A stretch of 33,325 nt of DNA from Gemmatimonadales bacterium (GTDB lineage: Bacteria; Gemmatimonadota; Gemmatimonadetes; Gemmatimonadales; GWC2-71-9). The DNA lies in the NCBI GenBank assembly GCA_039794085.1, contig JBDIWC010000043.1, positions 1 through 33,325 of the forward strand. Reading direction: 5' to 3'. The position numbers were made by a program, and so were the translations under genes. Positions 3,198 to 29,281 of the stretch are shown in pieces (within the stretch, counting starts at the first letter, position 1; each line of letters starts with the position of its first letter). The notes under the pieces are model-generated. The model was not told the DNA's origin. It did not search any database and was given only the letters and a program-made list of their open reading frames with translations.

Positions 3198-3219
3198 CCT
3201 GGGAGCGGTCGGCGGTAAC

Positions 3220-3296
3220 CCCTGGGACCGCCCCGCTCCAGCGTGGCGTGCCGGGAAGTTGGGTGCGCGCCGGGCTGGAGCCCGGCGATCCCAGGG
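3220..3296. repeat. REPIN-like element (pair of CCCTGGGA..GCCGGGCTCCAGCCCGGC REPs)
   Basis: Its reverse complement aligns closely with 12045-12122. It lies between convergent genes and has short duplicated flanks (GGTAACC, GCGATCCCAGGGG). Confidence 0.75.
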
Positions 3297-3323
3297 GTGG
3301 CGCGATCCCAGGGGTGCCGCGCC

Positions 3324-5561
3324 TCATGGGGTACCTCCGCCTCCCGATGACGCAACCGTCACACTCACCCGGGTCGGCTGGGGCGCGGGCGTGAACACCC
3401 GATCGTGGGCATCCTTCACCGGAACCACCGTCAGAGCATAGTTGCCGGGATTCGGCCAGACCAGGCTGATGACGAATTCCTGCGCAGGACTAGAAGTGCA
3501 GGTGCCATTCCCCTGCGCGGCATTCCATGAGCACGCCGACGGGCGTCCTGCCGGAGCGGGCGCGGGCGTGGCGCCGCCGGTCCAATTCACCTGGTAGGTC
3601 ACCCGGTTGGTGTAGGGGTAGCAGGTCGGCATTCTCACCTTGTGGTTGGTGGGCTGTCCCGCCACCGGCGGCCCCGTGCTCTCGACCATTGCCACCAAGG
3701 CATTGGAGCCGCCGGGCGCCACATCGCGGAACCAGAGATGCTTCTTGGCCATCAACTCTTGCCGATACGAATTGCCGACGATCTTGCCGAGCACCAGTGC
3801 CTCGGCCCGCAGCTCCACGCCCCAATCGAGGTCGGCGCTGAGGACGTGATTCTCCTGGCTGGTGGAGGCCCCACCCGCCGTCTGAGAGCCGGCGGCGGCC
3901 GCGCAACCGGAGGCCATGCCCAGCAGATACGGCTGGGGACCGACTCGGGCACTCAGCGCCTCGTAGTTGAAATCGAGCTGGAGGGCGGTATAGATAGCCG
4001 GCTTTACGGTGACGGTGCCCTCGATCTGGGCGCTCTCGTTCGTGGTGGTGGCGGCGGGCTGTCTCAGGGAGCGAGCGGTGCACCCCCTCCCGCTGCAGCC
4101 GAAGCTGAACTCCGTCGGATTGGAATTCTTGACTTGGAACTGGCCCTCGGCCTTGCCCTCCGCGCTGACCTGGATCTCGCCCTCGATGTAGGCGCTCACG
4201 TCCATTTCGGCGACGGGGACGCCGCCAATGACAATGGGAAACACCTGAATCGGAATGACCGGACCGCCGGTCGGCGGGATGGTGAAGGTCTTGTTGAAGC
4301 TTCCGGTCGCTGACACGATGGTCTTGAGTTCCTGCCCCACGGTCAGGACCCCGGATCCCCTGAGAGCCTTGGGACGAATCGCAAAGGGGAGGCAGGGGAT
4401 ATAGAACAGGTCGAGCCGGGCGGCAACGTTGGACCGCATGGGGATCCCTATGGTGGCACTCCCGGAGACCGTCCCTTGGGCCGAACCCTTCGAGCCGCTC
4501 TGGGAGAGATTCACGGTCATCGAGGGCGTGATGTCGAACTCCACCGGGATGTTGCCCGAAATGGTCCGCTCGGTGAAGCACTCCAGCGATGTCTCCCAGA
4601 CATCGGCGAGGGTCTCTTTGGCGGTTTCCCACTCATTGGAGGCGTGGTCGAACGTCCTTTTCCACTCGTCGCTCACAGCCTGCCCGGCACAATCCCAGGA
4701 ATCGTACCAGTTGCCGCACTTCTTCTCCTTGGGCTCGGTCGGCTTGACGTCGTCGGGGACCGGGTGGGCGGCAATCCACTCCCGGGCCAACTGCGTGTTG
4801 ACCATGTAATGATCGGACTGGTCCAACGGCGTCCTTCGCACCAGCATCTCGATCAGCCGCTTCGCACCTGGTGGGAGACCGGGAGCTTCCCCGACCGCCT
4901 TGAGTCCGCGCAGGTAGAGCACCGGGGCACTCACGCTTCGGCCGGCGACCTGCGTGGTCACGCTGGCGGTCTGAAAGCGGCTGGCCGCCCGGGTCCGCTG
5001 AGCGGTTCGGGCCACCGGCGGACCAAAGGTCACCGCGGGCAACACGTTCACCATGGCGGCGGTGATCGGCGCTGCGTTTACGGCTCGCGCGGCCGGCTGC
5101 CTGGGAGCCGCCGGTGGAGCCGGAGGCGGGGGCGGGGGCGGGGGAGGCGCCTGGCGCGCGGCCGGAGTGGGAGCGGGCGCTGGAGGCCGCGGTGCCGGTG
5201 CTGCTGTCGGGGCGTTCGGCCCACTGGTGATCGCACAGCACGCGGTCCGCCCGTCCAGCGACACCTGCCGGGTCCTGAAATTGGCGAACACGCCCTGTCC
5301 GACTCGGAGCGTCGCGAGCGTCCTGGCGTTGGTCACCTTGAATTGAAAGACATTCCCGTTCGCCGTGATCGTGCCGGTGACGACACCGGTTGCGGCTTCG
5401 ACCGTAGTGATGGAGCAGCAGGCGGTCGGCGTTTGGGCGCGAGCGCTCACCGGAGCCAGCGAAATCACGATTATCGCGGGGGCAAAGTACCTGTCAGCGA
5501 AGCACATCGATTTCTCCGATCTGATGGCGGCCATTCCGATCGCCGCGGTTGCCGGTGTCAC
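3324..5561 (-). CDS. Large secreted hypothetical protein (small CC-bounded beta domain, Pro-rich linker, Trp-rich helix, long beta-rich region)
   Basis: 745-aa ORF with a signal-like segment ending SARA/Q. GTGA overlap with the upstream gene stop (5558-5561). The start may be slightly downstream. Confidence 0.8.
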   Translation of the reverse strand: MTPATAAIGMAAIRSEKSMCFADRYFAPAIIVISLAPVSARAQTPTACCSITTVEAATGVVTGTITANGNVFQFKVTNARTLATLRVGQGVFANFRTRQVSLDGRTACCAITSGPNAPTAAPAPRPPAPAPTPAARQAPPPPPPPPPAPPAAPRQPAARAVNAAPITAAMVNVLPAVTFGPPVARTAQRTRAASRFQTASVTTQVAGRSVSAPVLYLRGLKAVGEAPGLPPGAKRLIEMLVRRTPLDQSDHYMVNTQLAREWIAAHPVPDDVKPTEPKEKKCGNWYDSWDCAGQAVSDEWKRTFDHASNEWETAKETLADVWETSLECFTERTISGNIPVEFDITPSMTVNLSQSGSKGSAQGTVSGSATIGIPMRSNVAARLDLFYIPCLPFAIRPKALRGSGVLTVGQELKTIVSATGSFNKTFTIPPTGGPVIPIQVFPIVIGGVPVAEMDVSAYIEGEIQVSAEGKAEGQFQVKNSNPTEFSFGCSGRGCTARSLRQPAATTTNESAQIEGTVTVKPAIYTALQLDFNYEALSARVGPQPYLLGMASGCAAAAGSQTAGGASTSQENHVLSADLDWGVELRAEALVLGKIVGNSYRQELMAKKHLWFRDVAPGGSNALVAMVESTGPPVAGQPTNHKVRMPTCYPYTNRVTYQVNWTGGATPAPAPAGRPSACSWNAAQGNGTCTSSPAQEFVISLVWPNPGNYALTVVPVKDAHDRVFTPAPQPTRVSVTVASSGGGGTP

Positions 5562-7360
5562 GGGATCTTGATCTTCTTCTTGAGCGACCCGCCCAATCCC
5601 TTCTTCGCCTTCTTCTCGGCTTCCTTTTTGAGGGGCGCCGCCGTCGAGTCGGCGAACGATCGAGCGGAATCCGCCACCATCCCGATCGCGGCCGGTGTCG
5701 CTGTGCTACCCTCCGTGTCGCCCGGGGGTTCGACCTGGGGAGGGAGCTCCTGCTGGAACGCGACCTTGGTCGTTTGGTGGAGGGATTGGGCAGCGCTGCC
5801 GAGCCGGGCCAGCGCCGTCTGCGCGCCGTCCTTGTCGGTGGCACTCGTGAATTCCCGGATGGCGCTCCGCACATCACTCAGCTGGGAGGGCATGGTGGAG
5901 ATCATCCGGAGGCCGGCCACCAGCAGGTTGGTGTTTTTGAACCGGGATACGAACTGGGGCAGGTTCTGCAGCACCGCGCCGAGGATGACATCGAGCCGGT
6001 TGAGCGGTTTGCCGCAGCAGGACGTGATGAAGGGGGAAGGCGCGAAGGTGTCCTGCGCGAAGGTGTCCTGGGCGATGCTGTCGGCTGCGGGCGGAGTGAC
6101 TGCGGGTGCCCCCCCCTCCGGGGTTGCGGAACCCGTGGTATCGGGGAGCTGATCCACCATGCGGGTGAGGTCCTGGACGAATCCGTCCAGTTCAGTCAGC
6201 TGATCTTCCAGCGGCGAGTCGAATGCCGGCATCGCGGGGGCGAGGACCGACGCCGGCGGGACCGCCTGGGCGGTGGGCACCACGCTGTAGCGGAACACCA
6301 TCCCGTGGTCGCCCACGAGATAGGCTCGATCCCGTCGTGGGAAACTCCAAGCCCGTGGCGGGGCGGGAAAGCGAAACGTACGCGAGTTCCACCGGGTTCC
6401 CCCGTCCACCGTAAAGCTCATCTTCTCGTGGTACTCCAGCGCCCAGCCGACCTCGGGGTCGGCAAAGATCAGGCTGCTGTAAGGGCTCACGCTCGCGAGA
6501 AGACCTTTCCAGGTCGCGCCGCCGTCGGTGGTGCGCGAGAGCTTTCCATCGGTGGTCCGAACGATCCCCGTGTTCTCATCGGTGAAAAACAGATCGGTCG
6601 CGCCCACCACCTCGGGATCGCCGGGGCCGACGAAAAAGTTCCAGCTCTCACCGCCGTCCTCGGTTTTTGCCAGGATCGGCGGGTATTCGCACGGACCGAC
6701 GCACCTGGTCTTGGCGACGAGGTACCCGACCGACGGTGTGACGAACTGAATCCGGCCGACGGTGCAGCCGATCTCGCGACTGAGTCCGCCCACGGTGGCT
6801 TTGACGGAGCATGCGGCGACCGGCTTCCAGGTTCTGCCGCCGTCCCGGGTCTTGAGAAGGGTCGATGGCACACTTCCCATCCCGAGGAATCCCGCCGCGA
6901 CGCCTTCGGTCGGGGAGCTCATTGCCAGGGCATGGATGTACTGGGGGGCAGCGCCAAGGTCCTCCCACGATTCCCCGTCCTCGGTGCGCAGGATCCGGGC
7001 GGAGCTGCTGCCCGCTCCCCCGATCACCGCCCAACCGTGGGTTTCATCGAGGAAACGCAGGAGTCGGACCGGAGGATCGGCGGATTGTGGATCGCCGCCC
7101 ATCTGCGCCGTCCAGGTCGCGCCGCCGTCTCCCGTGTGGATGATCGTTCCTTTGGATCCGGCGACCCAACCCTTGTCGATCGTGACGAAGAAGACTTCGC
7201 GGAAGTCGAGGTCTTCGCTGAAGCTCACCGGCTCCCAGACGCCCTTGAACCCGGGGTCGCGAGCCGGTTGCTGCGCAGCCAGCGGGACGGCGATGAGCAG
7301 GGCGAGGGCCGCTCGCCAAGCCTGGCGGTGGGTAACGCAAATGCGGGGGGAGGTCGGCAT
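5558..7360 (-). CDS. Secreted YCF48/BNR (Asp-box) repeat beta-propeller protein with helical C-terminal domain
   Basis: Signal peptide (ALALLIAVPLAA/Q). Six T-x-D-G-(G)-x-(T/S/R)-W Asp-boxes (TGDGGATW, TEDGESW, TRDGGRTW, TEDGGESW, TTDGGATW, TVDGGTRW). AGGAG RBS upstream. Confidence 0.88.
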   Translation of the reverse strand: MPTSPRICVTHRQAWRAALALLIAVPLAAQQPARDPGFKGVWEPVSFSEDLDFREVFFVTIDKGWVAGSKGTIIHTGDGGATWTAQMGGDPQSADPPVRLLRFLDETHGWAVIGGAGSSSARILRTEDGESWEDLGAAPQYIHALAMSSPTEGVAAGFLGMGSVPSTLLKTRDGGRTWKPVAACSVKATVGGLSREIGCTVGRIQFVTPSVGYLVAKTRCVGPCEYPPILAKTEDGGESWNFFVGPGDPEVVGATDLFFTDENTGIVRTTDGKLSRTTDGGATWKGLLASVSPYSSLIFADPEVGWALEYHEKMSFTVDGGTRWNSRTFRFPAPPRAWSFPRRDRAYLVGDHGMVFRYSVVPTAQAVPPASVLAPAMPAFDSPLEDQLTELDGFVQDLTRMVDQLPDTTGSATPEGGAPAVTPPAADSIAQDTFAQDTFAPSPFITSCCGKPLNRLDVILGAVLQNLPQFVSRFKNTNLLVAGLRMISTMPSQLSDVRSAIREFTSATDKDGAQTALARLGSAAQSLHQTTKVAFQQELPPQVEPPGDTEGSTATPAAIGMVADSARSFADSTAAPLKKEAEKKAKKGLGGSLKKKIKIP

Positions 7361-7417
7361 GCCAGTGGCTCCTGTGATGGATAGCTCACTGGATGGGTCC
7401 CCGATCGGCGGCGGGCG

Positions 7418-10135
7418 TTACACCGGGGGGAGGTTCGGGTCCCCGAGCAGGATGAACGGCGCCCAGTATGCCGGGTGGCTGGTGGCCGTGTCTGCTTCGA
7501 TCCAGTGCTTGCGCACCAATCGAAGCGCCTCGGCCGGAGTCCGGCCGCTGTCCAGTTTTCCGTAGAGATCGGTCATGAAACGAAGCGTTGACCGGTCGGT
7601 CACCGGCCAGAGCGTGACGAGGGTGCTCCGGGCCCCCGCCGCCAGAAACGCGTGAGACAGGCCGACCATGCCCTCACCGCGCACCTGCCGTCCCAGTGCG
7701 GTCTCACAGGCGGACAACGTCACCAGTTCGGCCCGGAGATCGAGACGCCGGATCGCGGGAAGGTCCAGCACGCCGTCGGCCAGGACGAGGTGGCTCCGGT
7801 CCGGCTCGCGGTCGTCCACCCGCGCGTGGGTCGCGAAGTGCAGGTACCGGTAGCGCCCCGGCTCGAACGCCAGCCACCGGCGCACGGTCGCTGCTCGCCC
7901 GATCAGCAGGTCTGCCCCCGTGCTGCGGTACCGGTGACGGAGGGTATTCGCCTCCTCCTCGGCGTACGGGAGATCGATCTCGTTTCGCCGGTCCGGTGAC
8001 CGTTCCGCAGACCCGGTGGCCGGGGGGCGGGGGGCGGTCGTTCCGCGTGGATTGCCCACGGCCAGCATGGTCCGCTCCCATCGATCCAGCGGTTTGGCCC
8101 GGGCCAGGGCGGTGAGTACCGAGGCCGAAGGCCCGTAGATGATGCGGTGGGTCGCACCCAGGGGGGGGGCGTCGGGAGACGGGAGCAGGACCTCGAGGGG
8201 AAGCCGGGCGAGTGGTCCGTCCATGATGGCCATCACGAGGGAGGCGCCCGCCGGAGCCAAGGGCGACAGGATCTGCTGGTAGACTCGCGTGGCCGCCGGG
8301 CGCCACGCTGCATCCCCGGGGCGCTCGATGGTCCGTCCCAGGAACTCGACGGCCGCTCGGAGCGAGTCCGCCTGGCCCAACCGTTGGGCACGGATCTCGC
8401 GGCCCGTGACCCACCAGGCGTACACCACACTATCTCCCCAAAACACCGAGAAGAGGGCCGCCTCGGGGCGATGGAGCAGCGTGGTGCGGATCTCGGCGAG
8501 CGCCGCGGGAGACGGATGCCGCATCGCGGCGCGCGGATCGTCCCCGCCAGTGACCGACTCCAGCAACTCCAGGGAGTCCCGGAGCGCTTGCAGCTCGGCT
8601 CCGACGATGCGCGTCTGGGACGAGTCCCCGCCCGCGGCGGCCTCCTCGAATCGTGCTCTGAGCCGCTGCTTGAGCTCGGCCGCCGGGGTGGCCTCGCGCG
8701 CGACGTCACGCTCCGCGATCACTTCGAGCAGCATCCGGGCGCGGGCACGTTCGGCGACCGCGAACGCGGCGGCGACCCGCCCCCGGTGGAGGAGGGTGCG
8801 AATCGCGCCCTCGTACACGTGCCACTTTGGTTCGGCGATGCCGAGCCTGAGGTCACCCATCGACAGGCGACCCCGCCACGATTCCAGCAGATCGATGCCC
8901 TCCAGGAAGAATCGCGAGGCGTCCGCCCGGCCCTCCAGTTCGGCCACGCTCCCCCGCAGGGCCAGCACCTCGAGTTCCGCGTCGGGCGCGCCGAGCGAGT
9001 CGGCCACCGTCTCCGCCACCCTCACGAGCCGCCGGGCCGCGATCAGGTCTCTCCGCCCCACCGCGAGCCGGACCTGCGCCGCGAGAATCCGAAACCGCTC
9101 AAACGCAAAGCCACCGCGCACCGCCAGTGGGAGCGCACGATCAAGTGTCGCCACCGCGGAATCGGGGTTCCCCTCCGCCATCGCAATCAACCCGAGGTCG
9201 ATCAGCGCGATGACCCGGTAGATAGCCGGGGCCGGGCCGCTCAGCGGCAGCGACCGCTCGACCTGCTCCCGCGCTGCGGTCAGGTTGTTGGCCTTGAGGA
9301 AGTACTCCGCCAGCGAGTTGTGGGCATACACCATCGACGCCGAGTCACCCAGGGCACGCGCCGAGGCGAGCGACTGAGTCATCAGGTCCACCGCCTGGTC
9401 GAGCCGGCCGGTGTAGGAGCGAAGCGCCGCCAGGTTGCTGATCAGGTATCCGCCGGTGGAGGTGTCGGAGACCTGGCGGGTGATGGCCAAGCCCTCCTCG
9501 TACGCCGCGGCGGCCTCGGTGAGCCGCCCCACCGCCGCATACTCCACGCCCATGCTGTTGAGCACCCCCGCCAGCTGGTGCGGCGACCGCCCATAGCGAC
9601 GCTCCAGCGCAAGCGCACGTTCGGTTTCCTGCACCGACCGCCGGAAAAGCCCCCGCCGGGAGTAGATGGTGCCCAGCTGGGTGTGGACCCGGGCTCTGAG
9701 TTCGCCCTCATCGAGCCGCTCGGCCAGGCCCAGTGCCCGTTCGCAGTCCTCGATGGCCTGCGCGGAGCGCCCGAGACGTGACGACAGACCGCAGCGCATC
9801 AGATAGGTCCAGGCGAGACGCGAGGAGTCCGAACCGGCCAGGAGAAAGGCGTCGCGGAGAGCCGCTTCGCTGCTGTCGGTGCGGGCCAGGCGCATCAGGG
9901 TCTCGGCCCACCAGAGCTGCGCCCGCCACCACCCGGCGGAGTCCCGCGCCAGGGCGAAGGAATCGCGCAGGCGGCGATATTCGGGATGCGCTTGGCGAAA
10001 CCGTCGTTCGTCCCGGAGGCTGTCGGCGACGAAGAAGGGGGAACTGTGATTCCCTTCATCAACACCCGCGCCGGTACCGAAGCACCCCACTGCGGTGGCG
10101 AGCGCCAGCAGAGGGAACAGGTTGCGGCGCATCAC
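7418..10135 (-). CDS. TPR-CHAT domain (caspase-like, clan CD) protease with lipoprotein-type signal peptide
   Basis: TPR-like helices (GVLNSMGVEY, YLISNLAAL, YAHNSLAEY). AERARARMLLE motif. Catalytic His (YLHFATHA) and Cys (LVTLSACETALG). C-terminal HPAYWAPF. N-terminus MRRNLFPLLALATAVG-C. Confidence 0.93.
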   Translation of the reverse strand: MMRRNLFPLLALATAVGCFGTGAGVDEGNHSSPFFVADSLRDERRFRQAHPEYRRLRDSFALARDSAGWWRAQLWWAETLMRLARTDSSEAALRDAFLLAGSDSSRLAWTYLMRCGLSSRLGRSAQAIEDCERALGLAERLDEGELRARVHTQLGTIYSRRGLFRRSVQETERALALERRYGRSPHQLAGVLNSMGVEYAAVGRLTEAAAAYEEGLAITRQVSDTSTGGYLISNLAALRSYTGRLDQAVDLMTQSLASARALGDSASMVYAHNSLAEYFLKANNLTAAREQVERSLPLSGPAPAIYRVIALIDLGLIAMAEGNPDSAVATLDRALPLAVRGGFAFERFRILAAQVRLAVGRRDLIAARRLVRVAETVADSLGAPDAELEVLALRGSVAELEGRADASRFFLEGIDLLESWRGRLSMGDLRLGIAEPKWHVYEGAIRTLLHRGRVAAAFAVAERARARMLLEVIAERDVAREATPAAELKQRLRARFEEAAAGGDSSQTRIVGAELQALRDSLELLESVTGGDDPRAAMRHPSPAALAEIRTTLLHRPEAALFSVFWGDSVVYAWWVTGREIRAQRLGQADSLRAAVEFLGRTIERPGDAAWRPAATRVYQQILSPLAPAGASLVMAIMDGPLARLPLEVLLPSPDAPPLGATHRIIYGPSASVLTALARAKPLDRWERTMLAVGNPRGTTAPRPPATGSAERSPDRRNEIDLPYAEEEANTLRHRYRSTGADLLIGRAATVRRWLAFEPGRYRYLHFATHARVDDREPDRSHLVLADGVLDLPAIRRLDLRAELVTLSACETALGRQVRGEGMVGLSHAFLAAGARSTLVTLWPVTDRSTLRFMTDLYGKLDSGRTPAEALRLVRKHWIEADTATSHPAYWAPFILLGDPNLPPV

Positions 10136-10136
10136 G

Positions 10137-10745
10137 TCAGGGCGGATCGCCCGGGGCGAAGAGACGGAGAAGGGGGGAACGAATCACCGGCCGTTGCATC
10201 AGGTCGAAGCCTTCCACGTCCAGGTAAACCGATGTGTGCCGGTCGGTGGGAGAGAGCGACGTGGCGGAGATGTCGAGGCTCGTGTCGGCCACCTCTCGCG
10301 CCAATAGCAGGCGTCCGTCCGCTGCAAAAAGCCGCACGCGATACACGGCTACCGTGGAGTCGGCCGGCCAGGCCATGTGCCACGCGCCGATTGACACTTC
10401 GATCCGGACAGCGAGGCTGTCCCCGGTCCCCCGGACCGCATCCGGCGCGGCGGTATCGCGCGGCGTCAGCGCCCGCCAAGTTCCCAGCGCGACGATGGCC
10501 AACCCCGCGGCGATGGCCAGCGGCTTCCACGATGCGCGCGCACGGCGCGCCGGGATGGCCTCACCGCCGCGCTGCGCCGCGCGCACACCGGCCCCACCCT
10601 TGACGAGCTCCCAGCATCGGTCGCAGCCGAAGTAGTGCTCTTCGAAGGCGTTCGCCTCGGCTTCGGAAAGCCGACCCTCCAGGTAGCGACGGTCGATCTC
10701 GCTCCGGTCCACCCACTCGCAGGTCATCGGTTGCTCAGCCATCAT
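10137..10745 (-). CDS. Putative membrane-anchored anti-sigma factor (zf-HC2-like)
   Basis: RYLEGRLSEAEANAFEEHYFGCDRC (HxxxCxxC). One TM segment (PLAIAAGLAIVALGTW) followed by an extracytoplasmic beta domain. Directly downstream of the ECF sigma; start revised to ATG 10745/10742. Confidence 0.85.
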   Translation of the reverse strand: MMAEQPMTCEWVDRSEIDRRYLEGRLSEAEANAFEEHYFGCDRCWELVKGGAGVRAAQRGGEAIPARRARASWKPLAIAAGLAIVALGTWRALTPRDTAAPDAVRGTGDSLAVRIEVSIGAWHMAWPADSTVAVYRVRLFAADGRLLLAREVADTSLDISATSLSPTDRHTSVYLDVEGFDLMQRPVIRSPLLRLFAPGDPP

Positions 10746-10774
10746 GGAAGAGTTCCCGGAGAGGTCGTCGCGTT

Positions 10775-11305
10775 TCACAATCGCCACCCACCGAGCAACT
10801 GGGAGAGGCGTTCCAGGGCCCGGTGCTTCCGCACCCGGAGCGCGCCAGGGGTCACTCCAAGGCGAAGCGCGGTCACGGCACAATCTTCATCATCGAAGTA
10901 AAGGCAGCGAAGCAGATCCCGGTCATCGGGCTTGAGTTTCGCAAGCGCCTGACGCACCACGGCCCGAGCTTCCTCGCTCACCAGGCCATCGAGCGGACCC
11001 GGGCCGGCACCTCCGGCGTCCATCCCCTTGAGCTGCGTGAGCGCCCGCTCCTCGCGTTCCCGGGATCGATAGTGGTGCAGACAGAGGTGGGTCGCCGTCT
11101 GGAAGACGAAGCCCGCCAGCGCGTCGAGGTTCTCGACACGTCCCTGGCGCAGAGCCTCGGTCACCCGGCGGAGCACTTCCTGGGCCAAGTCCTCGGCCAA
11201 GAACGGGTCGCCAAGTCGGCGGGTTCCAAAGACGCGAAGACGCTCCCAGAACCGTTCGGCGAGGTCCCGTTCGAGTGTCTCAAGTATCAGCTGCGGGTCG
11301 GCCAT
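10775..11305 (-). CDS. ECF-family RNA polymerase sigma factor
   Basis: Region 2 (AEDLAQEVL...GFVFQTATHL) and region 4 (ALAKLKPDDRDLL...LGVTPGALRVRKHRALERL). Start at ATG 11305 (MADPQ). Confidence 0.92.
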   Translation of the reverse strand: MADPQLILETLERDLAERFWERLRVFGTRRLGDPFLAEDLAQEVLRRVTEALRQGRVENLDALAGFVFQTATHLCLHHYRSREREERALTQLKGMDAGGAGPGPLDGLVSEEARAVVRQALAKLKPDDRDLLRCLYFDDEDCAVTALRLGVTPGALRVRKHRALERLSQLLGGWRL

Positions 11306-11366
11306 GGGCAACCCTATGGAGGTGCGCCAGAATCTCGCTTCCGGGGGGCCAGGCCGCAAGGCGTGC

Positions 11367-11906
11367 TCAGAGGATGGCGACCAGCTCCTCCACCCCAACA
11401 CAGAACGGCTGCGCCGCCCCCTCGGGATGCCACACCAGACGCGTGAGTTCGGTGGCCGGAAAGTGGACTCCCGGGGTCCAGACCTCCACCTGACCATGGT
11501 CGGGATCGACCACCCAGTACACCTTGACGCCCACGCTCTGATACAGTTTGCGCTTGAGGACCCGGTCGGCGCGGATACTGGAAGGGCTGAGAACCTCCAC
11601 CGCGAGGAGGAGGGTCTGGATCCGGTCCCACTCGTTGGTGCGGGTCTCCTCCAGGGGAGCCACGAAGAGATCGGGTTGCACCAGAACATCGGGCCGCCAG
11701 GAGATGTCGGAGGGCGAGGTAAACAATTCTCCCACCCGCTCTCGATTCAGATAGGTGCCCAATGCGACGGCAAGGTTGCTCACCACCCTCTGATGAACAA
11801 CCCGGGGGGCCGGACTCACCAGGAGTTCCCCGAAAACAGTTTCGTAACGCCGCCCGTCGTCCGGGAGGGCGCGCACCATACTGGCGGTGTAGAACGGGGC
11901 AGGCAT
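11367..11906 (-). CDS. Uma2/DUF820 family PD-(D/E)xK endonuclease-like protein
   Basis: LPDDGRRYE..GELLVSPAP..HQ, VQPDL, LAVEVLSPSS...DR..KR.LY...GV..YWVVDP. Start at ATG 11906. Confidence 0.92.
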   Translation of the reverse strand: MPAPFYTASMVRALPDDGRRYETVFGELLVSPAPRVVHQRVVSNLAVALGTYLNRERVGELFTSPSDISWRPDVLVQPDLFVAPLEETRTNEWDRIQTLLLAVEVLSPSSIRADRVLKRKLYQSVGVKVYWVVDPDHGQVEVWTPGVHFPATELTRLVWHPEGAAQPFCVGVEELVAIL

Positions 11907-12004
11907 GTACACAAGCTCGGCTCGGCGACAGGGGTTTGGCAAGTCCCCGACAGGATAGCAACCCGGCTGCCGGTTTCCCGTACCCTTTGTTCGCAGGCGG
12001 CGGC

Positions 12005-12122
12005 CCCGGAACGCCGGACTCCAGCCCGGCGCGCACCTGATGTTCCCTGGGACCGCCGGGCTCCAGCCCGGCGGCCACCTGAAGTTCGACGCACGCCACG
12101 CTCCAGCGTGGCGCTCCCAGGG
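12005..12122. repeat. REPIN-like element (one full plus one partial copy)
   Basis: GCCGGACTCCAGCCCGGC, GCCGGGCTCCAGCCCGGC and GCCACGCTCCAGCGTGGC palindromes; homologous to 3220-3296. Confidence 0.75.
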
Positions 12123-12167
12123 AACCACGTGCATCTTCCGAAGCACTATCCCACATCAGGAGCATGC

Positions 12168-16638: not shown

Positions 16639-17058
16639 CTATTGCATCGTCTGGAGGACCGCGAGTAGCTCGTTGGGCGAGTAGACGGGAAGGTCGGCGC
16701 GCTTGAAACCCTGTGCATCCCGAGTGACGATCCCCGTGCATCGAGCCACGCGGGCGGCCTCGTGAATCACGGCGTCCTCGAAGTCGGCGAACCCCAGATC
16801 CAGTGCGTTCGACAGGACTGTTTCCGTGACCGGTGCGACTTCACACAACGAGAGCAGGGTCCGAAGGTGACCCTTGGCTCGCCGCGCACCGCCCCCCTTG
16901 GTCGCCAGGTAGGCGACGGTCGTCACCGATGTCGCGCTGATGACCCCGGTGACCACTCCGGACTCGACCGCGGCGAGGATGCGGACCGCCGGCTCGGCAT
17001 GCGGTGCTCGCGCCAGCAGGACGTCGAGGAGGATGTTGGTGTCGATCAACACCCTCAC
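16639..17058 (-). CDS. PIN-domain (VapC-like) toxin
   Basis: MRVLIDTNILLD, DFEDAV and IVTRD motifs; GTGA overlap with the antitoxin. Confidence 0.93.
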   Translation of the reverse strand: MRVLIDTNILLDVLLARAPHAEPAVRILAAVESGVVTGVISATSVTTVAYLATKGGGARRAKGHLRTLLSLCEVAPVTETVLSNALDLGFADFEDAVIHEAARVARCTGIVTRDAQGFKRADLPVYSPNELLAVLQTMQ

Positions 17059-17294
17059 TGATACTTCTCCTCCAGGTGGCGAAGGTAGTCCGCCTCATCC
17101 ACCGGGGTCGTTCCGAGGGCACCGAGCAACGACTTCACCTTGGGCGGCAGGAACGCCGGATCATCGAGCGGCGCCTCGAGAGCGGCGAAATAGTCCGCGA
17201 CCACCGTGGAGACCGATTTGCCGGACCGTTTGGCGTAGCGCTTGGCCCCCTGGATGAGGCGGCTGTCGAGTCGGAGGGTGAGCTTGGTCTGCAT
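17055..17294 (-). CDS. DUF6364-like ribbon-helix-helix antitoxin
   Basis: MQTKLTLRLD..LIQGAKRYAK..GKSVS.VVADYF ... DYLRHLEEKY; start at ATG 17294. Confidence 0.88.
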   Translation of the reverse strand: MQTKLTLRLDSRLIQGAKRYAKRSGKSVSTVVADYFAALEAPLDDPAFLPPKVKSLLGALGTTPVDEADYLRHLEEKYQ

Positions 17295-19988: not shown

Positions 19989-20609
19989 GTGCCCTGGATC
20001 CGGGTGATCGGCCTCGACGAGGCCACGGGTTTCCTCAAGGCGCAGTACGAGGCCGCGGTGAAGCGCGCGGGGTGGGTCTGGAACATCATTTCGATCCAGA
20101 GCCAGAACCCCCGCACCCTGAAGACGTCGATGGACTTCTACGGTGCGGTACTCTACGGACCCTCTCCCCTCTCCCGGGCCACTCGCGAGTTGCTGGCCTG
20201 TGTGGTGTCCCGGGAAAACCACTGCCGATATTGACTCCGCTCGCACGCCCACGACCTCCGTGCCGAGGTCGCCGCCGACTGGGGAGTGACGGACGAGGAG
20301 GAGGGAGACCGCCTGGTTCGGCAGATCGCCACCGACTGGCGCGCCGCGCCGCTCACTCCCGCGGACCGTGCCCTTGCCGAGTATGCCGTGAGGCTGACCC
20401 GCACGCCGCAGACGATGACTGCGGAAGACATCGAGGGTCTCCGGACACACGGCCTCGACGACCGGGCCATTCACGATGCGGTGCAGGTGATCGCCTACTT
20501 CAACTACATCAACCGGGTGGCCGACGCCCTCGGCATCGAGCACGAGACGCGGATCCGGGCGTGGGAGGAGGAAGGGGCCGGGGGAGACGGGGGTCCGGCC
20601 GGACCATGA
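19989..20609 (+). CDS. AhpD/carboxymuconolactone decarboxylase-like peroxidase-related selenoprotein (CxxU; TGA at 20232-20234 read as Sec)
   Basis: One continuous frame: ...LSRATRELLACVVSRENHCRY[TGA]LRSHAHDL...ALAEYAVRLT...IHDAVQVIAYFNYINRVADALG. The TGA occupies the second Cys position of the AhpD CxYC..H motif and is followed by a SECIS-like hairpin. Confidence 0.82.
20252..20271 (+). promoter_or_regulatory. Putative bacterial SECIS element (apical stem-loop)
   Basis: CGACCTC-CGTGCC-GAGGTCG: 7-bp stem; loop begins 24 nt after the UGA, with G at loop position 2. Confidence 0.6.
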
Positions 20610-23210: not shown

Positions 23211-23600
23211 TCACCTGATCGTCACCTCCATCCCGCCCACGAGGCGTTCATCCTGGACGCCACGAGCGACCACAACCACTCGACCGACCAGGAGTCCACG
23301 AACCCACGTCGTCGTGTCAGAATCAACTGTCAACGCAACGGCAGACGCCGGAGACGCCTCCCACCGCACAACGAAAGCCACCCCGGGAAAGCACGATGCG
23401 AAGAGAGCGAAGGGTCGCGCGGTGACGTGGGTGGAATCGCCGACCGCGATGGTATCGGTGAACGGACTCAGGACGACTGGGCTCCCGATACAGCTTTCCG
23501 ACGACGGTTGTTCCACCGACGAGTTGCCGCACGCCGAGAGCCAGGCCAGGTTCGCCAGCCAGCTCAAAGAGAGCATCTTGCGGATGCAAAATAGCATCAC
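23211..23600 (-). CDS. Small lipoprotein with Ig-like (Big_2-type) domain
   Basis: LAWLSA-C lipobox; VLSPFTDTIAVGDSTHVTA...VRWEAS pattern; GTGA overlap with the upstream gene. Confidence 0.65.
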   Translation of the reverse strand: MMLFCIRKMLSLSWLANLAWLSACGNSSVEQPSSESCIGSPVVLSPFTDTIAVGDSTHVTARPFALFASCFPGVAFVVRWEASPASAVALTVDSDTTTWVRGLLVGRVVVVARGVQDERLVGGMEVTIR

Positions 23601-25483
23601 AAGCCTCCCTGGTTGAAGAGATTAAAGAGCCAGAGCTGGCGAAACCGGGTCTTGTCCCACGTGGGAGGCAAAAACAGCGACACTGAGATCAGATCATACA
23701 AACGCCCCGTCACGAAATAACGCTGACTGGTTGCCGGATTGATGGCTGTCTGCGGATCGAACGGCGGCGACACATCCGGTGTATCGAGGCAATAAATGAC
23801 CTGGTCGATGCCATCGAGAATCGCATGCCAGATTCCGGTCGAAGCGTCCCTCAGGGAGCAGTTCTGGAACGCCTGGACAATGAGACTCCCAGGCCACGTC
23901 ACCTGGTCGTCGTCCGTCCCACTCTCGTTCTGTGGACCGTTGGGGTCAGCGGGACCATCCACCAGATCGTAGAGGAAACCCGCGACGGCGCCTTCGATTA
24001 TCGAGCCGTCGCCGAATGCTCGCTCCACATTCACCTCCGCCTGATGGTCGGTATAAGTAATCCCTTGACCCGACGTCAGGCCACTTCCCGCAACCCACGC
24101 TGAGAAGAAATCGGCGAAGCCTTCAACAAATGCACAGGAAAGCGAACTGGCCACACCAATGAAGTGCTCGCCGGAGCATGCATTGGCCCACGGTTCGATG
24201 GCGACATAGTGAAATCCGTACCCGTATTCGTGCATCACCACAAACGTCCCCTCTTCGCCAAAGGCCCTTTCCGCGTTCATTCTCACGATCTCAACCGAAG
24301 ACCCTCCTCCACAGCCCATGGGACAATAGTTGATCGGTGACTCGGGATCGCCATCAATGTCCGATGCCCAGATCAGCATGCTGGGCCGCGAGGTTCCGAA
24401 TTTGGTAAACGCCTGCGGAACGTACTCCTCCATGATCGAGAAGGAACTCGCCGCCGTGTTGTTGTTCACCAACATCAGATGCCCCGTCGTCCCGGTGAAG
24501 ACCGACAGGGAGGACCCCGCCATCGCTCCATTCTTTCCCTTCCCCTCCGACACAAACCCCTTCATTGTATACTCCCCCTCGACGTATTCGAACCCATCGG
24601 GACAGACCACCGTGAAGTCGCCGGTGCTGGAGACGCTGCTCACGCTCGGTTGCTCGGACAGATCCCACTCCAGCACCTCAGGACTGCTCCGCCCGAGACA
24701 GACGACCGACAGCTGCCCGCCGCGCACACCGCGCGTCTGCTGGGTCGAAATGTCGACGTACTTGACCGATCCCTGCACCGTTGCCTGAGACCCCATGGCC
24801 AACCCCTCTACCTTGCCTGCCGGCCGCGGCTTGGGCCGTGGAAAGCGTACCCCGTACGCTCCGTACTCGAACCGGTACGCCGAGTCTACCACGGTGCTGT
24901 CCCATCCCTCCGTGAGCCGTCCTCCCTCCGGTGTCACGAACACCCAGAGGGTCCGGCTGACCAGATTCCGTACATGGGTGCCGTCGGGCAATTTCCCGAT
25001 CGGCGCCGCCGTCGCGGTGGCCAGAAGCCGGTAGTAACCCGGGGCGTCATAGGTGATGGAGGAGCCGATGCTCGAGATGGCCGCCACTCCCAGACCCCCC
25101 TGCCAGTCCCGGAGGGTCGTATGGGTCCGACCTTGGTTGGCCGCACGGGATGCCGCCGGAAGATCCAGCCGCTCCAGCGTCAACCGCACTCCGGTGGCCT
25201 GAACCCGGCCTGTGAGGCGCACCTCGATCTGAAGGGGTTCGCCCGGGCGAATCGTCCCGGTGGACGTCAGCTCGATATCGGCGAAGGGAACTGTGGGGTG
25301 TTCGGTGAGGCGCCCGCCCCGGGCCGCCACAGACCCGCCCACCACGGGCTGGGTTCCGGTGCCAACGGGCGTCGCGGAATCAGGTGTACATCCGGCGGCC
25401 AGGAGCACGGCGAGCACCAGCCCGCCTGGGTACCGGCCGACACGAGACTTACGGCCTTCTGGCGGCGGGGCGGAAAAAGTCAC
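23597..25483 (-). CDS. Lipoprotein with gluzincin-like metallopeptidase domain (variant HEYGY motif)
   Basis: VLAVLLAAG-C lipobox; VVMHEYGYGFH followed by AFVEGFADFF; GTG at 25483 preceded by GAGG. Confidence 0.75.
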   Translation of the reverse strand: MTFSAPPPEGRKSRVGRYPGGLVLAVLLAAGCTPDSATPVGTGTQPVVGGSVAARGGRLTEHPTVPFADIELTSTGTIRPGEPLQIEVRLTGRVQATGVRLTLERLDLPAASRAANQGRTHTTLRDWQGGLGVAAISSIGSSITYDAPGYYRLLATATAAPIGKLPDGTHVRNLVSRTLWVFVTPEGGRLTEGWDSTVVDSAYRFEYGAYGVRFPRPKPRPAGKVEGLAMGSQATVQGSVKYVDISTQQTRGVRGGQLSVVCLGRSSPEVLEWDLSEQPSVSSVSSTGDFTVVCPDGFEYVEGEYTMKGFVSEGKGKNGAMAGSSLSVFTGTTGHLMLVNNNTAASSFSIMEEYVPQAFTKFGTSRPSMLIWASDIDGDPESPINYCPMGCGGGSSVEIVRMNAERAFGEEGTFVVMHEYGYGFHYVAIEPWANACSGEHFIGVASSLSCAFVEGFADFFSAWVAGSGLTSGQGITYTDHQAEVNVERAFGDGSIIEGAVAGFLYDLVDGPADPNGPQNESGTDDDQVTWPGSLIVQAFQNCSLRDASTGIWHAILDGIDQVIYCLDTPDVSPPFDPQTAINPATSQRYFVTGRLYDLISVSLFLPPTWDKTRFRQLWLFNLFNQGGL

Positions 25484-25696
25484 AGGGACCTCATTCAGGT
25501 TAGGGGTCACCCCCAGGTTACCGGTGGCCTTCTCAGTTGTCAAGCACCAACCACTTGACCAACTGTCACCTCCCAAGGACACGAGAGCGAAGCACCGGGC
25601 GTGACCCTTGGCTCAAGCTACCGGGCCTTTCCGACAGTCTCCGTGCGCCACGTCACAAGAACTTGGGTCCAGTAGCCTCGGTGGCCAAGGCCACAC

Positions 25697-28033: not shown

Positions 28034-29281
28034 CTATTCCCGGGAAAGCGGAAGCGACCGGAATTGCTCCGTCAGGGGATAGAGATGGATCTGTTCCACA
28101 TCGTCCTCGTCCCGCGCCACCCCCACGAGCATTCCGTTCCGGACATCATTCACAACCAAGCCTGCGGGCGTGGTCCCGAGGCCGAGCAGCTGACCCGAGG
28201 GAGCGAAGATCCACCATGCCGCGGGCTCGGTCCCGGGAGGGAGTCCATAGCGGTACACCCACTCGGACCAATTCCCCGGATACTTCTGGACCCAGAGCCG
28301 ACCATCCCCATCGACGAGGATCCGGGGGAACAGTGGCTTCACCTGAACCGTGTACTCATCCATCGGACGGAATCCGCGCCAGAAATCGAGCCCGTCCCGC
28401 TGGATCAGCATGTCGCGCGTGGCATGGTATCGCGCACGATCACCCTCGGAAATCGGCTCCGGTTCGGCGAGCCACCTCACCAGGCGCACCAGGCTTCCCC
28501 GCCGGTTGTGGGTCTGGATCTCGGGCACCTTCCCGGTGCCGATGTAAACACGGCTTCCCTGCGTCACGAAGGACGGCTTGTTGCCGAACGGCATCGTCAC
28601 GTGCCCCAGATCGGGCAACCGGAAGGTTTCCAGTCCCGGCACTGTCGACACCGAATCAAGCCGGTCCACCCCGACATCATACCAGGCCACCGTGAAGGGC
28701 ATGGATCCGATCAGTCCCGTCGGTGGTATACGCTCCTGTTTGAGCACCACAAGGGAGTTGCAGTCCTCCGCCACACCGGGGATGTCCCACGGGCGTCCGA
28801 TTCCATTCGGCAGGGCGTGGGCCTGGCGGACGAACTTTCCGTCCTGATCGAGCAGGTGCATGATGCCCCGGTTGAGTTCCACAACCACCACACCGTCCCC
28901 CGCGCAGAGAAACAGACCGTGCATCCACTCGAACTCCCCCGGACCCTGGCCCCTTCGGCCGGACAACACCGCCTGACCTGTTGCGGGATCGATGAACATG
29001 GGCTGATACAATCCCGCGTTCGCCACGACGATCGTTCCACCCGCCTGGATCCGGACCCCGGTGACCCGGTGCAGGTCCCCCCCGGGCGACAGGATCTGCC
29101 GTCGTGATTCATCCACCACGAGGCCAAGAGCGGCGGGGAGTGCTCCGTTCTCGACAATCTCTATGCCGACGCTGTCCCGCACCGTGAATCCGGTGTCACC
29201 CCGACCCGAGGTTCCCCTGCCGCATGCGGCGAGAACAAGGACCAATCCCCAGCATGCCGCATTCAAGACAATGCCCTTCAT
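28034..29281 (-). CDS. Lipoprotein, 6-bladed beta-propeller-like
   Basis: LVLVLAA-C lipobox; VRDSVGIEIVEN, GRRGQGPGEF, ILVDGDGRLWV and RDEDDVEQI motifs; AGGAGG RBS. Confidence 0.82.
   Translation of the reverse strand: MKGIVLNAACWGLVLVLAACGRGTSGRGDTGFTVRDSVGIEIVENGALPAALGLVVDESRRQILSPGGDLHRVTGVRIQAGGTIVVANAGLYQPMFIDPATGQAVLSGRRGQGPGEFEWMHGLFLCAGDGVVVVELNRGIMHLLDQDGKFVRQAHALPNGIGRPWDIPGVAEDCNSLVVLKQERIPPTGLIGSMPFTVAWYDVGVDRLDSVSTVPGLETFRLPDLGHVTMPFGNKPSFVTQGSRVYIGTGKVPEIQTHNRRGSLVRLVRWLAEPEPISEGDRARYHATRDMLIQRDGLDFWRGFRPMDEYTVQVKPLFPRILVDGDGRLWVQKYPGNWSEWVYRYGLPPGTEPAAWWIFAPSGQLLGLGTTPAGLVVNDVRNGMLVGVARDEDDVEQIHLYPLTEQFRSLPLSRE

Follow-up and report, generated by a model that had tools for sequence, protein, structure and literature searches.

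A predicted protease-gated ECF sigma factor switch in Gemmatimonadota: a split form of DdvS/DdvA joined to two likely secreted proteins

In Myxococcus xanthus, DdvS, a sigma factor of the extracytoplasmic function (ECF) type, and its membrane anti-sigma factor DdvA control a CBASS-CRISPR island, and DdvA itself carries a periplasmic TPR-CHAT region (PMC11506125, PMC6061681; PDB entries 8rot and 8rlz). Proteins with a CHAT domain also relieve the inhibition of regulators elsewhere. In craspase (CASP) systems, the TPR-CHAT protein Csx29 is described as cutting the sigma inhibitor Csx30 and so relieving inhibition of CASP-sigma (PMC10028731, PMC9729208), and in Anabaena, HetF was shown to cut PatU3, the inhibitor that sequesters HetZ, after a single arginine, Arg117 (PMC9457339). 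Here, we describe a 33,325-nucleotide (nt) stretch of DNA, referred to below as the window, from a Gemmatimonadales bacterium (GenBank assembly GCA_039794085.1, contig JBDIWC010000043.1, positions 1 to 33,325). Five genes on its minus strand, at positions 3324 to 11305, are best interpreted as a switch of three parts, consisting of an ECF sigma factor, an anti-sigma factor, and a TPR-CHAT protease, with two output genes attached.

All five open reading frames of a preliminary description of this DNA were recovered at their positions, tightly packed on the minus strand and with the His-Cys dyad of the protease intact; when the longest starts are used, the intergenic gaps are indeed 29, 1, and 57 nt, followed by a 4-nt overlap. 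The first gene (10775..11305) encodes a 176-amino-acid ECF sigma factor with Sigma70_r2 and r4_2 matches (TIGR02937, 69 bits against a cut-off of 42.9). It is followed by the gene for a 202-amino-acid zinc anti-sigma factor (10137..10745), the start of which may be 10742 instead of 10745, and by that for a 905-amino-acid TPR-CHAT protease (7418..10135; Pfam CHAT and TPR), a predicted lipoprotein. The remaining two genes encode output 1, a likely secreted beta-propeller protein of 600 amino acids (5558..7360), and output 2, a likely secreted protein of 727 amino acids (3324..5507). The longest frame of the last gene opens at 5561, but it more likely starts at the ATG at 5507, which has GGAG just upstream, is used by the database call (P0001, 727 amino acids), and is shared by the close relative P0082; the gap to the propeller gene is then 50 nt.

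The linkage of the five genes exceeds chance. Among 19 genome loci fetched with the 727-amino-acid protein, the propeller is present in 16 and a CHAT gene in 12 (12 of the 16 loci with at least 3 kb of upstream sequence), which bears out the proposed association of the secreted genes with CHAT. These 19 loci include near-duplicates: L023 and L024 come from one genome, and L020, L028, and L015 recur as G006, G082, and G395/G446. Eight of the 12 CHAT-bearing loci are co-oriented like the window; the other four have a divergent layout, in which the genes for CHAT, anti-sigma, and sigma face the opposite way to the secreted pair. Those relatives of the 727-amino-acid protein that carry names are nearly all from Gemmatimonadota, where its gene has a patchy distribution (at an E value of 1e-10, there is a match in 17 of 401 phylum genomes, in 13 of them across most of the length). 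In 75 metagenome loci, a set that includes some near-duplicates and kin that are not independent, the propeller was found in 27 and CHAT in 5. When the 24 metagenome loci with 5 kb of upstream sequence were considered, 19 held a relative of the 727-amino-acid protein without CHAT, and the propeller was present in 11 of these 19, suggesting that the propeller and the 727-amino-acid protein are a pair of their own that is under switch control in some lineages only.

The anti-sigma factor consists of a CHCC zinc domain (zf-HC2), one membrane helix, a linker, and an Fn3-like outer domain. An alignment of 49 close relatives places the zinc ligands at C9, H37, C41, and C44, and a hydrophobic 19-mer (mean, 1.66) starts at residue 76. 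Profile matches were obtained to RslA (3hug, E value 7.5e-4), to an Fn3-like structure (3mpc, E value 0.17), and to the zinc domain of DdvA (8rlz, E value 0.27). Within the linker lies the motif D102-A-V-R105-G106 (10428..10442, minus strand), a candidate cut site after Arg105. By column, Asp or Glu at position 102, Arg105, and Gly106 are each kept in 49 of 49 sequences, two of which need a one-residue gap; positions 91 to 101 are conserved in at most 27 of the 49, and the rest of the extramembrane linker is variable.

A wider survey was anchored on the anti-sigma factor, which matched in 47 of 121 related genomes; the best 39 of the 75 listed places by E value were fetched, with the window and two half-genes set aside. 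Twenty-eight of these distant anti-sigma factors share the zinc-membrane helix-Fn3 architecture, and 25 have a CHAT neighbor (4 convergent and 1 in the same open frame); the other three lie on contigs of 2.6, 2.9, and 9.1 kb. An arginine occupies the equivalent linker column in 27 of the 28, and the exception has no CHAT gene on its own contig. The other 11 places match in the zinc and membrane part only: five have a TPR-type outer domain together with CHAT, and six have other, non-TPR outer domains and no CHAT (0 of 6). V-R-[G/T/S] occurs in the linker of four of the five TPR-type proteins and was not located in the fifth. Variant arrangements were also seen. At L093:4458-8537 (G050:C74, minus strand), an anti-sigma and a TPR-CHAT are encoded in a single open frame of 1360 codons, which may represent a DdvA-like fusion in this family. 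At L138:594-5903 (minus strand), one anti-sigma gene is followed by two tandem TPR-CHAT genes, with propeller, 727-amino-acid relative, phospholipase-C-like, and lipase-like genes on the opposite strand. The source genome holds a second, distant trio of sigma-like, anti-sigma-like, and TPR-CHAT genes (G000:C23:26720-31483, equivalent to L102:6721-11484, minus strand), in which the CHAT protein is 30% identical to that of the window; a gene of 287 amino acids comes after the trio.

The CHAT domain of the protease scores 194.8 bits against PF12770 (cut-off, 24). Its dyad, H770 (7828-7826) and C810 (7708-7706), is invariant in 12 of 12 aligned proteins, indicating that catalysis is under selection. 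A hydrophobic leader ends in Cys18 (10084-10082), and the same pattern occurs in all seven relatives that have an N terminus; the protease is thus likely exported as a lipoprotein, on the linker's side of the membrane. A complex model of protease residues 30 to 900 with anti-sigma residues 92 to 200 scored 0.76, while the best of three controls scored 0.00. As a rough guide (our own alignments were used here), the mark applied is passed by 116 of the 157 solved complexes and by 2 of the 215 mismatched pairs. The model runs share at least 50% of their contacts, with a partner pLDDT of at least 74, and the interface joins protease residues 245 to 287, 591 to 617, and 775 to anti-sigma residues 133 to 194. 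The protease is therefore predicted to dock on the Fn3-like outer domain, with residues 591 to 617 as the predicted docking surface. Cleavage after arginine has precedents, since HetF does so and separase cuts after ExxR (PMC9729208), and we consider it likely, from the conserved linker and the model, that the protease clips the anti-sigma factor, probably at the invariant Arg105.

Promoter-like motifs, all on the minus strand, connect the switch to the two secreted genes. A predicted housekeeping (sigma-70-like) promoter, TTGCGG-N17-GAGATT, precedes the sigma gene (11331..11359); the pair recurs upstream of sigma in four of five other co-oriented loci, and TTGCCG-N17-TATNAT was read by eye on the sigma strand of two divergent loci. 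A scan with consensus promoters and terminators returned nothing above shuffled sequence and did not flag this site. A different motif, TG[T/A]AAC-N14-GGNRAC, occurs twice within the cluster and is not seen before the sigma gene itself. Predicted ECF promoter 1 (TGAAAC-N14-GGGAAC, 10752..10777) lies over the sigma stop codon and likely drives anti-sigma and CHAT. The motif is found at the 3' end of sigma in 10 of 10 loci inspected and in 7 of 7 further cognate sigma genes. The zinc domain could be located in 16 of 27 loci, one of them without the motif, and in 13 of the other 15 an in-frame start codon follows the motif by 9 nt, a spacing which suggests that the anti-sigma and CHAT message is perhaps leaderless. 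Predicted ECF promoter 2 (TGTAAC-N14-GGGGAC, 7397..7422) lies over the CHAT stop codon and likely drives the two outputs. With a matrix trained on 11 loci that excluded the window, it was the top site of the source genome (25.6, compared with 19.0 for the next), and it is also that genome's sole match to the strict pattern.

The same motif marks the output genes of related loci. Of 15 regions inspected, all 15 have TGTAAC-N14/15-GGNRAC upstream of the gene for output 1, among them those of the divergent layout and of three loci without a nearby CHAT; as a tally, this is 15 of the 16 genome loci with enough upstream DNA, three loci being too short. In G249, G270, and G229, the motif stands directly before the gene for the 727-amino-acid protein. 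In the held-out set of 24 metagenome loci, the motif was found in 5 of 5 with a cognate sigma and in 1 of 19 without, and this lone locus shares its contig with L015, from a genome that encodes the sigma at another place. A cognate sigma was found in 7 of 10 genome handles searched (9 distinct genomes); G332 and G033 have neither the sigma nor the strict motif. The background of the pattern is 14 matches in 8.3 million positions. Together, these sequence comparisons indicate that TG[T/A]AAC-N14-GGNRAC is likely the promoter of this sigma factor and marks its regulon, in support of the earlier suggestion that the two secreted proteins are outputs. Because two promoter-like motifs lie inside the cluster, the five genes are likely not one plain transcript. 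A wider regulon in the source genome was considered and rejected: there was no convincing third site, and the next-best matrix score of 19.0 falls inside a gene. A TGTAAC..GGAGAC site is present 92 nt before a gene on C26 of the same genome. Elsewhere, at L159:3045-10910 (plus strand), a more distant sigma/anti-sigma/CHAT trio precedes a copy of the same promoter motif, after which come genes for an M48 peptidase, a protein with the Cys-Cys module, and a relative of the 727-amino-acid protein.

Output 1 combines a BNR/Ycf48-like beta-propeller with a C-terminal helical domain. It matches PSII_BNR with 54.9 bits (cut-off, 27) and Ycf48 structures with an E value of 1.6e-10; its score of 66.9 against the Ycf48 equivalog lies below the cut-off of 326, so it is not a Ycf48 orthologue. 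The helical domain, whose helices are amphipathic, belongs to no known family and has 57 relatives, all with the BNR propeller PF14870. Output 2 has no Pfam or NCBIfam match. Its model (pLDDT 84.6, pTM 0.68) contains, in order, a CusF/TOBE-like module flanked by Cys-Cys, a proline-rich linker, a helical segment, a beta-strand core, and a C-terminal Ig-like domain. The module (residues 31 to 98, in the region of window positions 5417-5200) has a weak likeness to CusF/TOBE, and module stretches searched alone exceed no Pfam cut-off; it is mobile, often repeated, and present in many likely secreted proteins, and among 50 proteins scanned, 4 have it joined to a GH25 muramidase. The core has long amphipathic strands with alternating polar and apolar faces, and fold searches gave at best a Foldseek E value of 0.009 with a TM score of 0.07 and a VIA Z score of 5.4 (root mean square deviation [rmsd] 2.2, 59 aligned). 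The Ig-like tail matches 2w1n (Z score 10.3, rmsd 2.6, 114 aligned; Foldseek and VIA). A profile of output 2 found nothing in the PDB under an E value of 0.17, and a search of the Atlas gave a usable match for neither output. The idea that output 2 is a pore-forming protein or fusogen found no clear support: the searches gave nothing clear for the core, and HAP2 was matched through the Ig domain only.

Recurrent neighbors across 95 loci were zinc-phospholipase-C-like proteins (12), lipase-like hydrolases (9), CsgG (7), and M48 peptidases (4). With phospholipase C-like, lipase, and muramidase domains next to their relatives or joined to them, the outputs are most likely envelope-acting proteins, with lipid or wall as the target, although the model is at its weakest here. 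That they attack or scavenge foreign envelopes seems a substantial possibility, falling a little short of an even chance; repair of the cell's own envelope appears somewhat less probable than that, and a role other than these two is unlikely.

Considering these lines of evidence together, we think it reasonably probable that the cluster is a protease-gated sigma switch with output genes attached, in which the CHAT protease sits on the Fn3-like domain and, on an outside cue, cuts after Arg105 to free the ECF sigma factor. The proteolytic switch of the preliminary description is thereby retained as a trans-envelope, CRISPR-independent one, with the anti-sigma factor as the likely substrate in view of the conserved linkage, the invariant linker arginine, and the docking model. 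The housekeeping promoter would maintain low levels of sigma, anti-sigma, and protease, and the zinc domain of the anti-sigma would hold the sigma, as expected from family knowledge and from DdvA. With the protease docked on the outer domain as predicted, the outside cue would activate it, and a cut within D-x-x-R/G, after Arg105, would remove that domain. By analogy with DdvA, RseP would then cut the remaining stub; an RseP-like gene, recognized by its motif, is present in the source genome (G000:C2:74005-75375). The freed sigma would read TG[T/A]AAC-N14-GGNRAC before anti-sigma and protease, which would reset the switch, and before the propeller and the 727-amino-acid protein, which would give the output, and would not read its own gene. 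We also formulated a more far-reaching joint reading, which we regard as doubtful. In it, a widespread separase-like periplasmic protease would be a dedicated site-1 enzyme acting on a docked anti-sigma and would here unlock a secreted envelope-attack kit, in which the 727-amino-acid protein and the propeller together make up a membrane-acting machine of two parts, accompanied by partners of the phospholipase C-like, lipase, and muramidase kinds. A role of the system in conflict is a guess.

Several observations weigh against this reading of the switch and its outputs. Neither Arg105 nor the dyad is among the confident contacts of the complex model, which fits docking or a non-cutting shield equally. 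Outside the close family only the arginine of the linker motif is kept, without D-x-x or the glycine, and a gappy alignment may bring arginines together. The separase residue that binds the P1 arginine, D2151, appears to map to Leu851 of the protease, by a weak alignment (E value 0.97) with numbering that we anchored on what we take to be C2110. The segments LWPVTDR and LWDVTDR had at first looked alike, but D2151 counts onto Leu851, and a separase-type S1 aspartate was dropped as support for arginine specificity. Craspase CHAT proteins cut after Met or Leu (PMC11506125), so arginine specificity is not general among CHATs, and according to the same source, autocleavage of DdvA is unproven and its dyad mutants behave like the wild type at rest. 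Regarding the promoters, the loci in which the motif was counted are also those from which it was initially read, and these kin are not independent. Each of the two window sites lies over a stop codon, with promoter 1 also in the reading frame of the anti-sigma gene, so coding constraint may add to its conservation. L021 lacks the motif, L068 lacks it before the anti-sigma gene by the pattern used, and G447 has the motif, yet a cognate sigma was not found there with the query used. Enrichment of the motif across genomes of the phylum was considered and rejected: a match is present in 83 of 301, which by eye is similar to a reversed control, so the motif is informative by position only. (The unpublished genome G219 is counted in this tally and in the 17 of 401 given above; no other result rests on it.) Finally, neither a phospholipase-like nor a lipase-like partner was found in the source genome.

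The contacts of the model would suit a TPR-CHAT that binds and does not cut, either shielding the outer domain or being kept inactive by the linker arginine as a pseudo-substrate, with release by dissociation and another protease and with the same regulon. RseB/MucB provides an example of a shielding role. The docking away from the dyad, the absence of a confident contact to Arg105, and the separase P1-binding Asp that appears not to be kept all point this way, as do the gingipain prodomain, which inhibits by placing an arginine in the S1 pocket (PMC4357240), and the TPR-CHAT of DdvA, described as blocking RseP sterically (PMC11506125). We nevertheless consider it unlikely, if worth serious attention, since the invariant H770 and C810 speak for catalysis, the arginine sits close to the outer side of the membrane, at the place of site-1 cuts and in an otherwise variable linker, and HetF provides a case of cutting after arginine (PMC9457339).

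The proteolytic switch was also weighed against readings that give the protease or the outputs another purpose. The preliminary description had allowed that CHAT matures the two secreted proteins; in such a reading, this would be the main task of the protease, and sigma and anti-sigma would just govern the full set. All three proteins are likely exported, their genes are adjacent in 12 of the 19 genome loci, and caspase-like domains process secreted toxins in other systems (PMC3482391). However, no conserved acid-x-x-R-small site was found across 96 relatives of the 727-amino-acid protein or across 11 propellers, the 19 long metagenome loci described above keep the 727-amino-acid relative, 11 of them with the propeller, without CHAT, and CHAT accompanies the anti-sigma regardless of which outputs are present; we consider maturation highly improbable. 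Somewhat less remote, but still improbable, is an antiphage early-warning switch like DdvS/DdvA whose outputs would be envelope-level defence proteins. It would draw on the same parts as the controller of the CBASS-CRISPR island (PMC11506125), and a Uma2/DUF820 gene with a PADLOC PDC-S03 match lies at 11367-11930 (minus strand), 61 nt upstream of sigma and on the same strand. That gene has at least 11 copies in the genome and adjoins only 1 of the 19 related loci, PADLOC matched neither sigma, anti-sigma, nor either output, the recurrent neighbors are envelope enzymes, and the CRISPR-cas locus of the genome is on another contig, with none of the listed promoter matches there.

Other features of the window and genome were noted. 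GC-rich palindromic repeats at 3218-3315 and 12008-12125, inverted with respect to each other, flank the Uma2 gene and the five-gene cluster; they were rejected as mobile-element ends, as similar repeats occur at about 10 places in the genome, and are more likely REP-like. The CMD/AhpD-like gene at 19989-20609 (plus strand) has an in-frame TGA in a C-R-Y-stop context (CxxU-like), after which the frame continues for 125 codons; the genome has a tRNA-Sec, and the gene likely encodes a selenoprotein. A toxin-antitoxin-like pair of PIN and DUF6364 genes lies at 16639-17294 (minus strand), and two long open reading frames without a Pfam match are at 23597-25582 and 28034-29182 (both minus strand). 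On a separate contig, G000:C72:51-10600 holds a CRISPR array with cas2, cas4/cas1, and cas3-like genes, a locus that is presumably of type I-G.

That a periplasmic CHAT acts as the first-cut protease on an anti-sigma is a proposal from the DdvA study, whose authors state that it can be verified only after the signal has been found (PMC11506125). The split form separates the enzyme from its substrate and names Arg105, a docking surface, and two promoters, which makes the DdvA proposal accessible to point mutations and a reporter. In addition, a defined regulator from a phylum that has received little study becomes linked to two uncharacterised secreted families, one of which has a core without a clear known fold. 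A paper describing the split form was not found in the open-licence main texts of PubMed Central and bioRxiv; supplements may list such neighborhoods.

Among the known systems, craspase shares with the window a TPR-CHAT that acts on a sigma inhibitor, but it is cytoplasmic, is triggered by Cas7-11 and target RNA, and, as noted, cuts after residues other than arginine. On sequence grounds, the window system is excluded as a craspase: the protease scores 20.7 bits against the Csx29 family NF041237 (cut-off, 300), the protease carries a leader of the lipoprotein type, no cas family was found among the window open reading frames scanned, and the only array from a crude scan of the genome is that on contig C72. 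Thus, of the likeness to Csx29/Csx30 drawn in the preliminary description, the CRISPR-independent character stands, while the nearest relative in function is another system. The computationally predicted EACC2-caspase systems (PMC8195603) likewise comprise a caspase-like protease, an ECF sigma, and one further partner, encoded in conserved neighborhoods; as described there, they have EACC2-caspases with variable C-terminal sensors and DUF1822, whereas the window has no DUF1822 match and its TPRs precede CHAT. HetF-PatU3-HetZ, likened here by description only, resembles the proposed switch in that a CHAT protease cuts an inhibitor sequestering a regulator after one arginine; it differs in its developmental role, and the parts of PMC9457339 that deal with it describe no zinc membrane anti-sigma/ECF pair.

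The closest known system is DdvS/DdvA. Both have an ECF sigma with sigma2 and sigma4 only, a CHCC zinc anti-sigma with one membrane helix (zinc binding being read from the sequence here), a TPR-CHAT with a His-Cys dyad (the window protease matches the 8rot profile with an E value of 8.3e-8), and a -35 element with GTAA, and in both a site-1 linker cut followed by RseP is proposed. The DdvS promoter, GTAA-n16-CGT, is described also before the sigma gene (PMC6061681), whereas the window motif, G[T/A]AAC-N14-GGNRAC, has GGNRAC in place of CGT as its -10 element and is not found there, and the predicted targets in the window are anti-sigma/CHAT and the two secreted proteins rather than a CBASS-CRISPR island. 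Most distinctively, the TPR-CHAT of the window is a separate protein, with a stop codon between the two frames at 10137, its own leader, and Cys18, and it is also separate in the related genome loci; the anti-sigma has an Fn3-like domain of its own and a single invariant linker arginine as the candidate site. The window switch is a split form of DdvS/DdvA, which works alike without being a member of that system.

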